59,955 nucleotides of DNA from Candidatus Parcubacteria bacterium (GTDB lineage Bacteria > Patescibacteriota > Minisyncoccia > Phycocordibacterales > JBAYGS01), in NCBI GenBank assembly GCA_039795895.1, contig JBDKKW010000004.1, forward strand, positions 1 through 59,955, read 5' to 3'. The notes beneath the pieces are model-generated. The model did not search any database, was not told the origin of the DNA, and saw only the letters and a list, made by a program, of their open reading frames with translations. The stretch's first letter is position 1. Every line of letters starts with the position of its first letter. The position numbers and the translations under genes are program-made. This document shows positions 30,495 to 32,690 of the stretch, in pieces.

Positions 30495-30552
30495 ACCAAA
30501 CATACTACTCCTTTTGTTATTTTTCGCCACTACTTTGTGACGAGATTAGACT

Positions 30553-30891
30553 TTATTTTTTCACCATACCACTGATCGTCTTCCAATGCTTTTTGAGATC
30601 GAGAGCTAGCTCGGCCACCTCTTCTTTACTTGCCTTGGCTCCACGAGCATATTTGTTGGAAACTGATTCAACAATCCGATGATACACCGGCTCAGACACC
30701 TCTTTGGCTTTTTCCAAACCTTCTACCACATCTCCCTTCATCTTGATCGCCCACGCCTTGAGATGCTTTTGATGTTTTTTGCCTTTTGGTCCCAGGAAAA
30801 AATAGGTGGTAGCTGCAATACCCGCAAGACTTGCTCCGAGTGCCACCGCCTGAGCTGTCGCCGATGTCTTTGTGATTTTCTTTTGTTTCAT
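30553..30891 (-). CDS. YtxH-like small membrane-anchored protein
   Basis: TM ALGASLAGIAATTYFFLGPKGKK followed by charged helices. Confidence 0.7.
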   Translation of the reverse strand: MKQKKITKTSATAQAVALGASLAGIAATTYFFLGPKGKKHQKHLKAWAIKMKGDVVEGLEKAKEVSEPVYHRIVESVSNKYARGAKASKEEVAELALDLKKHWKTISGMVKK

Positions 30892-30913
30892 TGTGATATA
30901 TAAATGAGTAATG

Positions 30914-31183
30914 CTAGACGTTTTCTTTGAGCGCCTTGTGTCGCTTCTTCCGCACGGGCGGAAAAAACACTCGAAAGACAATATTATTTTCAAGTCGCTC
31001 ACGGAGTTCAGATACAAACTCCTCCGACTCCTTAAATCCCCCTTTCAATGTCTCCGAAAGTCGATACAGATTTTCTCCAGCCAAAATCAAATAGCACAAG
31101 ACCACAGAAGCCAGTAGTGCAAGCACCGCTGTGGCAATAGATGCAATAAAAAAGAAGATATCGGCCTTAAAAAGAGTATCCAT
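30914..31183 (-). CDS. Small membrane protein (DUF948-like, paired with the YtxH-like gene)
   Basis: ADIFFFIASIA... TM plus short coiled coil. Confidence 0.65.
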   Translation of the reverse strand: MDTLFKADIFFFIASIATAVLALLASVVLCYLILAGENLYRLSETLKGGFKESEEFVSELRERLENNIVFRVFFPPVRKKRHKALKENV

Positions 31184-31324
31184 GGGGTAACATTTTTAAA
31201 TACACCTCTCAAGCCGAAATCAGATTGTTTGTATTACAAAATCAAATCAGGTTGTACAAAAGCACCCCCTATTGTATGCTTTATATGGTTGTAATAACTT
31301 TAACCAACTAACGACTTTACCTAT

Positions 31325-31573
31325 ATGGAACCAACAAACAACACGCAAGGAAAGTATACGCTCGGCATTATCATTCTCGTTATCCTCGTTATCGCTGGAG
31401 GCTACTTCTTCTTTAAAAAAGATAAGGCTCCTGCTACAGAAAGTACTCCGGTAGCAGAAGAAACTACCACGACTGATACGAGCGCAACAGACACTGGAAC
31501 CAAAACAACTACATCAACCACGGTCACCAAGACCCCAAGTCTTCCAGCAACTGGCTACGCACCACGACAGTAA
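31325..31573 (+). CDS. Small N-anchored Thr-rich protein ending in an LPATG sortase motif
   Basis: N-terminal TM, T/S/E-rich stalk, ...PSLPATGYAPRQ-stop; directly upstream of the sortase. Confidence 0.8.
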   Translation: MEPTNNTQGKYTLGIIILVILVIAGGYFFFKKDKAPATESTPVAEETTTTDTSATDTGTKTTTSTTVTKTPSLPATGYAPRQ

Positions 31574-31614
31574 TCGTCGACAATACGAGCTCGCGCTCAC
31601 ACAATAGATACCCC

Positions 31615-32232
31615 ATGCATTCTCGCACACTAGCGAAGCAGGTATGCACCATCATCACACTCGTGGGTATCGCTTTTGCTGTATGTGCTTTTACCTATCC
31701 TGACACACTCGGTCAGATACGTATTCGACTGAGCAGATGGAGTGAGTCTGGTACACGAACGACTGAGCTTGCTCTGCAACCCGGACTCCCCACCCTTCTC
31801 ATCCTCCCGAGACTCAATATCCGTGCGTCAGTTGAATCGATCGGCCTCACCAAAGACGGTGCACTCGACACTCCAAAAGAACCAGACATCGTCGCCTGGT
31901 TTAACGCCGGCCCTCGACCTGGAGAAAAAGGAAATGCGATTATCGACGGGCACTATGGATGGAAAGATGGTATTCCAGCGGTATTCGATTCCCTCTCTCA
32001 AACGCAAATTGGCGACAGTATTTCAATACAAGACGATCATGGCAACGTGATTACTTTTGTAGTACATAAGATACAAATCTACACCAAAGAAGACACTACT
32101 TCGGATATTTTTAATGCACAAGACAAAGATGCACACCTCGTCCTCATCACCTGCCAAGGTGCATGGAACAAGGCAAGCCAAAGTTATGCAGGGAGATTGA
32201 TCGTGTTTGCGGACAAAGTGGAGACACTGTAA
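31615..32232 (+). CDS. Class F sortase
   Basis: N-terminal TM, W...GPRPGEKGNAIIDGH (His), LITC (Cys), GRLIV (Arg). Confidence 0.92.
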   Translation: MHSRTLAKQVCTIITLVGIAFAVCAFTYPDTLGQIRIRLSRWSESGTRTTELALQPGLPTLLILPRLNIRASVESIGLTKDGALDTPKEPDIVAWFNAGPRPGEKGNAIIDGHYGWKDGIPAVFDSLSQTQIGDSISIQDDHGNVITFVVHKIQIYTKEDTTSDIFNAQDKDAHLVLITCQGAWNKASQSYAGRLIVFADKVETL

Positions 32233-32301
32233 CTCGGGTATTTTTTAATGCGCTCAGAGGGAAATTGTGCTACAGTATTTTGCGACTCGAAGAGAGTCCA
32301 C

Positions 32302-32389
32302 GGAGACGTGGTGGAGTGGTCTAACATACCTCTTTGCTAAAGAGGCAGGGCCTTTAAAGCCCTCGAGGGTTCGAATCCCTCCGTCTCCG
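32302..32389 (+). tRNA. tRNA-Ser(GCT)
   Basis: Acceptor GGAGACG/CGTCTCC, G73, anticodon arm CCTCT-TTGCTAA-AGAGG, long variable arm, GAGGG-TTCGAAT-CCCTC. Confidence 0.96.
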
Positions 32390-32391
32390 CA

Positions 32392-32601: not shown

Positions 32602-32688
32602 GGAGAGATGGATGAGTGGTTTAAATCAACGGTTTACTAAACCGTCGTTCCTTAATTGGAACCGTGGGTTCGAATCCCACTCTCTCCG
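32602..32688 (+). tRNA. tRNA-Ser(ACT), rare A34 anticodon
   Basis: Acceptor GGAGAGA/TCTCTCC, G73, anticodon arm ACGGT-TTACTAA-ACCGT, long variable arm GTTCC/GGAAC, GTGGG-TTCGAAT-CCCAC. Confidence 0.93.
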
Positions 32689-32690
32689 CA

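Follow-up and report, generated by a model that had tools for sequence, protein, structure and literature searches.

A candidate anchor-less sorting signal beside a class-F-like sortase in the genome of a Candidatus Parcubacteria bacterium

The textbook sorting signal of Gram-positive surface proteins has three parts, a pentapeptide of the LPXTG type, a hydrophobic domain and a positively charged tail, and on the accepted view the precursor depends on the latter two to stay at the membrane until the sortase has acted. In Braun's lipoprotein (Lpp), a lipid provides the anchor in the outer membrane, and L,D-transpeptidases attach the C-terminal Lys to peptidoglycan. Among the sortases, class F was first characterised in Propionibacterium acnes (cited in an excerpt of PMC8225981), and sortases are common in bacteria of the candidate phyla radiation (CPR) according to an excerpt of PMC6744442. 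Staphylococcus aureus sortase A (SrtA) builds synthetic LPXTG peptides without a hydrophobic domain into the wall, as described in part of PMC4723074. Here we analyse a stretch of 59,955 nucleotides (the window) from a Candidatus Parcubacteria bacterium (assembly GCA_039795895.1, contig JBDKKW010000004.1, positions 1 to 59,955 of the forward strand), in which a gene for an 82-aa protein bearing an LPATG motif stands directly upstream of a sortase gene (31325..32232). Positions follow the numbering of the window; the genome it belongs to is called G000 and its contigs C3, C6 and so on. The two genes probably encode a sortase and its own tiny substrate, the sorting signal of which would be functional without a membrane anchor behind it, whichever fate the N-terminus has. 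This account draws on the anatomy of the small protein, the intact catalytic triad of the sortase, a motif specific to the sortase neighbourhoods, and anchor-less or sortase-fused signals that recur in the same CPR sortase family.

The mini substrate gene occupies 31325..31573 on the forward strand. Its product begins with MEPTNNTQGK (residues 1-10), of which K10 flanks a 20-residue uncharged hydrophobic segment, YTLGIIILVILVIAGGYFFF (residues 11-30; 31355..31414). This segment is followed immediately by KKDK (residues 31-34) and then by an acidic Thr-rich stalk (45% T; residues 35-72; 31427..31540). The LPATG motif lies at residues 73-77 of 82 (31541..31555), and the tail YAPRQ and a TAA stop codon (31571-31573) complete the gene (31556..31573); written as peptides, the motif-bearing end reads ...TPSLPATGYAPRQ and ...KTPSLPATGYAPRQ. 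This anatomy is as described in an earlier reading of the window made from its letters (the sequence-only reading), which had noted an N-terminal transmembrane segment, a Thr-rich stalk and LPATG five residues from the end of an 82-aa protein with no canonical tail. The likeness to the canonical SrtA system (PMC8225981, in part) consists of an LPXTG-type pentapeptide near the C-terminus, a membrane-anchored His-Cys-Arg sortase encoded by the adjacent gene, and the presence of peptidoglycan genes. However, no hydrophobic membrane-spanning segment follows the motif, where only YAPRQ is found; in place of a positively charged tail there is one Arg in these five residues; the passenger is a Thr-rich stalk; and membrane retention of the protein, if any, would need to come from its N-terminus. 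By eye, the 20-residue hydrophobic segment, with no A-x-A site and with KKDK after it, is a possible N-terminal secretion signal and may be either a signal anchor or the h-region of a signal peptide. General sortase chemistry, as given in part of PMC8225981, places the predicted scissile bond at T76|G77.

The mini open reading frame (ORF) has gene-like codon usage, with a log-odds of 0.451 in frame (5-95% range of real-gene chunks, 0.135-0.557) and negative values in the other five frames. When residues 31-82 were shuffled 200,000 times, LP.TG arose in 0.13% of the shuffles, within the last 14 residues in 0.04%, and with a trailing x-x-P in 0.0015%. The eight residues LPATGYAP are identical to the start of a canonical signal at the related CPR locus L044 (LPATGYAP, a transmembrane (TM) segment and KKHAL), and an intact sortase lies directly downstream, so LPATG can be taken as a genuine sorting motif, as the sequence-only reading had it. 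That the motif is instead fortuitous or inaccessible, because the protein lies N-out/C-in with a cytoplasmic Thr-rich tail or because the ORF is silent, appears highly improbable. In its favour, three Lys stand just after the hydrophobic segment against one before it (positive-inside rule), no obvious Shine-Dalgarno-like sequence was found upstream of the mini gene, and the promoter and terminator scan of the locus gave matches at chance level only (the weak promoter-like match at 31577-31605 equals the number expected by chance). The shuffle frequencies, the octapeptide shared with a canonical signal and the position of the ORF next to a sortase, an arrangement repeated at the other sortase of G000, argue against it.

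A C-terminal TM segment hidden by a sequencing error or a frameshift was also considered and rejected. The spacer between the mini gene and the sortase gene (41 nt; 31574..31614, forward strand) is too short for a TM-coding segment, and none of the three frames between the stop codon and the sortase N-terminus encodes a hydrophobic stretch. In run X1, a contig assembled independently covers 31285-32331 without a gap and differs by 1 letter; X1 may be the source sample, so that this contig checks the assembly and not the biology, and run X2 covers 31330-31480 only. The three-frame translation and the gapless second assembly rule out an error in the stop codon masking a TM, the weakness that the sequence-only reading had named in its own proposal. 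Stop-codon read-through was rejected as well, since translation past the TAA gives SSTIRARAHTIDTPCILAH and a stop, without a TM. At two related loci (L029 and L033) the sortase is in frame behind a single stop, whereas at two others (L032 and L042) and in the window it is not; therefore no consistent read-through design is apparent. No stop codon interrupts the sortase frame over the 46 codons ahead of its ATG, by arithmetic about a 1-in-10 chance event. A frameshift could in principle fuse the mini gene and the sortase, and no slippery site was seen.

The sortase gene (31615..32232, forward strand) encodes a protein of 205 aa with an N-terminal TM helix (residues 4-27), a low-confidence linker (28-58) and a catalytic domain (59-201), as judged from Pfam, NCBIfam, AlphaFold2 (AF2) and Foldseek. 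Pfam PF04203 matched residues 64-202 with 73.8 bits against a cut-off of 26.6 (E = 1.3e-20). The His-Cys-Arg triad of the sortase superfamily is present as His113 (31951..31953), Cys180 in LITCQG (32152..32154) and Arg194 (32194..32196); none of the three varies among the 65 aligned sortase domains or in alignment A1, and Cys180 aligns with the TC of PDB entry 4d70. The AF2 model, built from a 32-sequence alignment, has a predicted local distance difference test score (pLDDT) of 87.2 and a beta-barrel domain at 59-201. Foldseek against PDB returned 127 matches at E <= 0.001, and every listed match was a sortase (best E about 1e-10); its scores fail to separate the sortase classes, as C, A, E and D all lie at about 1e-10 to 1e-8. 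NCBIfam class F (NF033748) was the best class model with 118.4 bits, the other classes reaching at most 34.5, and LPXTG-type specificity is expected from this likeness. Nevertheless, the score is below the curated class F cut-off of 166 bits, as are those of five other CPR relatives (97.9-126.8 bits), and some members of the clade carry extra domains or substrate fusions. The sequence-only reading had called the enzyme class F, which holds for the best-scoring model but not for membership: judged by these scores, it is class-F-like and belongs to a divergent CPR clade. Among the 65 aligned domains, no clade-specific residues that might explain tail-less recognition were found at the thresholds used. 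Several sortases of the family depart from the plain N-terminal TM architecture (L013:1135-1944 (+), L004:1783-2937 (+), the 316-aa ORF of L050, L058:836-2200 (+) and P0013, a protein from the fusion search described below). By eye, those of L013, L004, L050 and L058 have a signal peptide and/or extra domains resembling peptidoglycan-binding repeats, and P0013 has a precomputed match to PF01471.

G000 (860 kb, 99% complete) encodes two sortases, and the motif proved specific to their surroundings. The pattern [LF]P.[TSA]G..P had 5 matches among 6429 six-frame ORFs, 3 of them in implausible antisense or internal ORFs. The remaining two, both credible proteins, sit directly upstream of the two sortases, one each. 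The second sortase is on contig C3 (L002:1468-2127, reverse strand), and its ORF is overlapped by 26 nt by the gene of its substrate, a 327-aa DUF7507-type protein (L002:2102-3085, reverse strand). This protein ends in ...FPNTGLPPQELEKNYCDARVSAE-stop, that is, FPNTG and 18 non-hydrophobic residues. Relatives of the C3 passenger family have a canonical end (L064), half a TM (L069) or a sortase fusion (L005 and P0010). A looser motif scan of the genome, allowing up to 45 residues behind the motif, revealed no credible canonical signal with motif, TM and basic tail. The one ORF with a hydrophobic tail in that scan (C6 159-383, LAHTS, 74 aa) was judged spurious, as it has no basic end.

The arrangement was surveyed in related genomes, and the sortase was matched in 11 of the 61 nearest genomes and, at E <= 1e-30, in 31 of 401 genomes sampled across the phylum, G000 being included in both counts. 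Neighbourhoods came from genome contigs (8 loci), the nearest genomes, the phylum sample (29 loci) and metagenome contigs (16 loci). A script tabulated 64 sortase ORFs, and the loci it missed (L017, L019, L025 and L026) were judged by eye. The resulting tally is a manual reading over about 69 distinct sortase genes, both G000 sortases included, in which kin are not independent. A canonical partner, with 25-50 residues containing a TM and a K/R end after the motif, was found for about 41 of these, spread over many loci. The TM was kept and the charged end missing in two cases (L006, the same as L059, and L053), and a short non-TM tail of 18 residues was present in two (the C3 protein of G000 and L069). 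Nine substrates were anchor-less, with 4-9 residues after the motif (the window, L007, L009, L029, L032, L033, L042, L065 and L067), and in two cases (L005 and L022) the substrate was fused in frame to the sortase. For about 13, the partner was unrecognised or the contig was too short. 

The anchor-less endings are YAPRQ in the window, FPPQN in L007, FPPEDVLTN in L009, FSPNP in L065 and FAPRWSK in L067. The other four anchor-less loci come from a single genus, g118, and end in AGPRN (L029 and L033), IGPRR (L032) and IGPR (L042); L042 belongs to an unpublished genome, G214, without which the anchor-less count is 8. The three public g118 genomes and G214 all keep ...GDIVPKLPNAG[AI]GPR[NR]-stop, and the linker before it varies and has clearly diverged. 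Therefore, the short ending is conserved and is not an accident of one assembly. The ending of the mini protein fits the x-x-P-R-x of other anchor-less signals (AGPRN, IGPRR, FAPRWSK), and Phi-x-P after the Gly of the motif is common to canonical and anchor-less signals. The passengers of the anchor-less signals are ordinary surface modules, namely Ice_binding (PF11999), DUF7507/DUF11 and SpaA_2. The sequence-only reading had foreseen further mini genes consisting of a TM, a stalk, LPxTG and a stop beside CPR sortases, and the survey recovered one, L007 (87 aa, ending in ...FPNSGFPPQN-stop), together with seven larger anchor-less substrates. Counting all types of ending, the other stalk-only mini substrates are L007, L017, L018, L019 and L021. 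At L008 (2750-3050), the upstream 573-aa gene reads ...FPNSALRG..., and one frame over it reads G-IAGFVLLARLALFVASV... into the sortase ORF; an assembly frameshift or a broken fusion of the L005 type probably explains this. The NCBIfam LPXTG-anchor models gave no match at E <= 0.01 to L057:1472-2440, L027:535-1488 or L029:553-1437, canonical CPR tails included, and the ice-binding domain alone was named in these proteins. As such tails escape the models, standard annotation would miss these sortase substrates.

Fusions provide a second form in which the motif is followed by no anchor. Locus L022, extended as L072:550-2877 (-) (= G008:C1), holds a 775-aa ORF of a 100%-complete genome from the same taxonomic order as the window. 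From its N-terminus, the product runs through a hydrophobic segment, an Ice_binding domain and repeat domains to ...SPKLPNTG, after which a hydrophilic linker of 28 residues leads into a complete sortase domain. A homology search restricted by length, with the C-terminal part of this protein as query, yielded 16 distinct CPR proteins (P0001-P0016; 508-855 aa, E <= 1e-10) in records named Paceibacterota, Kaiserbacteria, Gracilibacteria and 'Patescibacteria group', 15 of which have precomputed PF11999 and PF04203 matches. By reading, the sortase domain follows the motif in at least 14 of the 16. In the 12 that the script could parse, the linkers from motif to sortase measure 7-46 aa and none is TM-like (maximum 15-residue hydrophobicity <= 1.21). 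As for the unparsed proteins, by eye P0004 and P0011 have no TM, the linker of P0016 is moderately hydrophobic, and P0013 has TM segments. In the AF2 model of the L072 end, the LPNTG block has a pLDDT of 86 and the flanking blocks 47-67 and 46-53, a weak hint that LPNTG may pack on the sortase domain. These fusions indicate that sortases of this family can encounter a motif without a membrane helix behind it to hold it, and the fusions are possibly self-anchoring, single-turnover modules.

In an IQ-TREE phylogeny of 65 catalytic domains, the bootstrap of which had not fully settled, the window sortase fell in a supported 13-row clade (ultrafast bootstrap (UFBoot) 95, Shimodaira-Hasegawa-like approximate likelihood ratio test (SH-aLRT) 82). 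The clade comprises 5 anchor-less loci, 2 with an 18-residue tail, 1 fusion and 5 others: L056, which has no upstream DNA, L008, which is probably frameshifted, and the canonical L058, L062 and L064. An earlier quick tree gave a similar picture. The g118 group lies outside this clade, so that at least two origins of the anchor-less form are needed. The terminal branch of the window sortase is long (1.14).

Such a branch would also fit a decaying locus, in which the mini ORF is the remnant of a larger surface-protein gene that has lost its passenger and TM tail and no longer works as a substrate, with a sortase now idle or on its way out. The stalk indeed resembles the T/D-rich linkers ahead of the motif in larger substrates such as L028, the mini protein lacks a recognisable homologue, and the pair belongs to 1.7 kb of DNA that a genome of the same genus, G001, lacks. 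Yet both sortases of G000 are intact and each has a motif-bearing gene directly upstream, the codon usage of the mini ORF is gene-like, stalk-only mini substrates recur at the five loci named above, and anchor-less ends are conserved across g118 species. Decay is thus an unlikely origin of the mini gene in our judgement.

If the two genes are an enzyme and its substrate, the 82-aa protein would be exported by Sec via its N-terminal hydrophobic segment. The sortase would sit N-in in the membrane, with its catalytic domain outside on a flexible linker of about 30 residues. Cys180 would then attack the T76-G77 bond, releasing GYAPRQ, and the acyl-enzyme would be resolved by an amine, the Thr-rich stalk being passed to a peptidoglycan precursor (lipid II). 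Penicillin-binding proteins and Mur ligases are encoded in G000, in which FemAB was not found; the acceptor is therefore probably the diamino acid of the lipid II stem peptide. The use by S. aureus SrtA of peptides without a hydrophobic domain (PMC4723074, in part) suggests that a short tail is chemically acceptable. The same cleavage could also serve another acceptor: a Lys of a different protein or of a second copy, giving a pilus-like polymer, the wall of a host cell, or water, with hydrolysis and release. The stalk Lys residues K59 and K68, the KKDK cluster and the pilin-polymerising class C sortases among the top structural matches would fit a polymer, and cultivated CPR bacteria are attached to host cells, as an excerpt of PMC11623550 relates. 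On the other hand, the mini protein shows neither a pilin-type domain nor a pilin motif, the Foldseek scores do not tell the sortase classes apart, G000 has genes for peptidoglycan synthesis, and nothing in the data bears on host attachment, which makes these other acceptors very unlikely.

Several points weigh against a functional anchor-less signal. Schneewind et al. are said to have found in 1992/1993 that removal of the hydrophobic domain or the charged tail from S. aureus protein A leads to secretion rather than anchoring. KKDK right after the hydrophobic segment fits an N-out/C-in orientation by the positive-inside rule, which would leave the motif in the cytoplasm. Canonical tails prevail at the related loci (about 41 of 69), and the anchor-less minority could partly reflect decay. 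The sortase is absent from G001 and from G002, a genome of the same family. A search for homologues of the mini protein among 52 word-sharing candidates of 45-144 aa gave none at E <= 10, so that its own conservation cannot be judged.

Within the sortase-substrate account, the N-terminal segment might further remain as an uncleaved anchor, so that the stalk of about 45 residues, bonded at Thr76, would form a covalent staple from membrane to wall. This is the inverted-topology tether that the sequence-only reading had proposed, and we regard it as tentative, with the odds against it. It gains from the genuine motif and the missing C-terminal anchor, and from the hydrophobic stretch, which has 20 uncharged residues, is of TM length and has no A-x-A after it; all five other stalk-only mini substrates, unlike that of the window, have an A-x-A. 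In addition, five of the 16 fusions (P0001, 2, 4, 6 and 8) begin with hydrophobic segments of 18-23 residues without a nearby A-x-A, which makes an N-anchored, C-terminally sorted topology plausible in this family. However, G000 has a gene for signal peptidase I, and by the -3/-1 rule cleavage could occur at A-G-G|Y (residues 24-26). A-x-A sites like those of signal peptidase were found by eye in six other anchor-less proteins (L007, L029, L032, L033, L042 and L067) and in the C3 protein of G000, and KKDK argues for the opposite orientation. As most anchor-less relatives look cleavable, N-terminal anchoring is not a general compensation for the lost tail. Thus the parts of the proposal that concern the motif and the missing anchor stand, and the retained N-terminus is in doubt. 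A bolder extension, in our view somewhat less likely still, is that the sortase clade has dispensed with the membrane-retention half of the signal and that the mini substrate, keeping its helix, is a sortase-built staple between membrane and peptidoglycan, a counterpart of Braun's lipoprotein in an envelope of Gram-positive type. On that equally doubtful scheme, substrates would either stop shortly behind [LF]Px[TA]G-x-x-P or continue there into the sortase as self-sorting fusions.

If the N-terminal segment stays, the mini protein would resemble Lpp in being a small protein with the membrane at one end and a peptidoglycan bond at its C-terminal end. It would differ from Lpp in that a TM helix would hold it in the cytoplasmic membrane and a sortase would form its bond through Thr. 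The charge-less CPR tails (L006, the same as L059, and L053), with motif and TM but no K/R, likewise look like eroded canonical signals, but they keep the helix that is gone here. With the tail-less LPXTG labelling peptides (PMC4723074, in part) the mini protein shares a motif with a short non-hydrophobic extension, which a sortase in a living wall can use; those peptides are engineered and added from outside at micromolar concentration, whereas the mini substrate is encoded in the genome and its form recurs in natural lineages. We found no description of natural sortase signals without a TM, or of natural substrate-sortase fusions, in open-access papers and bioRxiv. The anchor-less sorting signal is best read as a new form of the LPXTG system.

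If this reading is right, conserved natural substrates do without the hydrophobic and charged parts, and retention in these ultra-small bacteria is either achieved differently, possibly by way of the N-terminus, by coupling with export or by confinement beneath the wall, or not needed. Current annotation models overlook such proteins, and the CPR surface proteome, which includes adhesin-like proteins of the ice-binding fold that may matter for host attachment, would be under-called. For protein ligation, such enzymes would be of interest as sortases that nature has adapted to short, soluble tags, and, should the tether exist, it would represent a new way of stapling membrane to wall.

Two further small genes, on the reverse strand (30553..31183), precede the pair. 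One encodes a YtxH-like small membrane protein (30553-31017 as listed; weak Pfam YtxH match) and the other an 89-aa TM protein (30914-31183). At L064, homologues of both (identity 31% and 27%, E about 1e-8) are neighbours of a substrate-sortase pair. The distance from the NUDIX gene to tRNA-Ser(GCU) is 1771 nt in the window (30531-32301) versus 79 nt in G001, and the 1.7-kb segment absent from G001 comprises exactly four ORFs: the YtxH-like gene, the 89-aa TM protein gene, the mini gene and the sortase gene. These four genes may travel as a module next to a tRNA gene, and the segment fits either a gain by transfer or a loss in G001.

Downstream of the sortase gene, tRNA-Ser(GCU) (32302-32390) is accompanied by a tRNA-Ser-type gene with a long variable arm and the anticodon ACU, with A at position 34 (32602-32689, forward strand; ARAGORN and Rfam, 59 bits). 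A serine tRNA with A34 is unusual in bacteria. The same pair of tRNA genes is also present in G001 (L075:979-1066 and 1252-1342).

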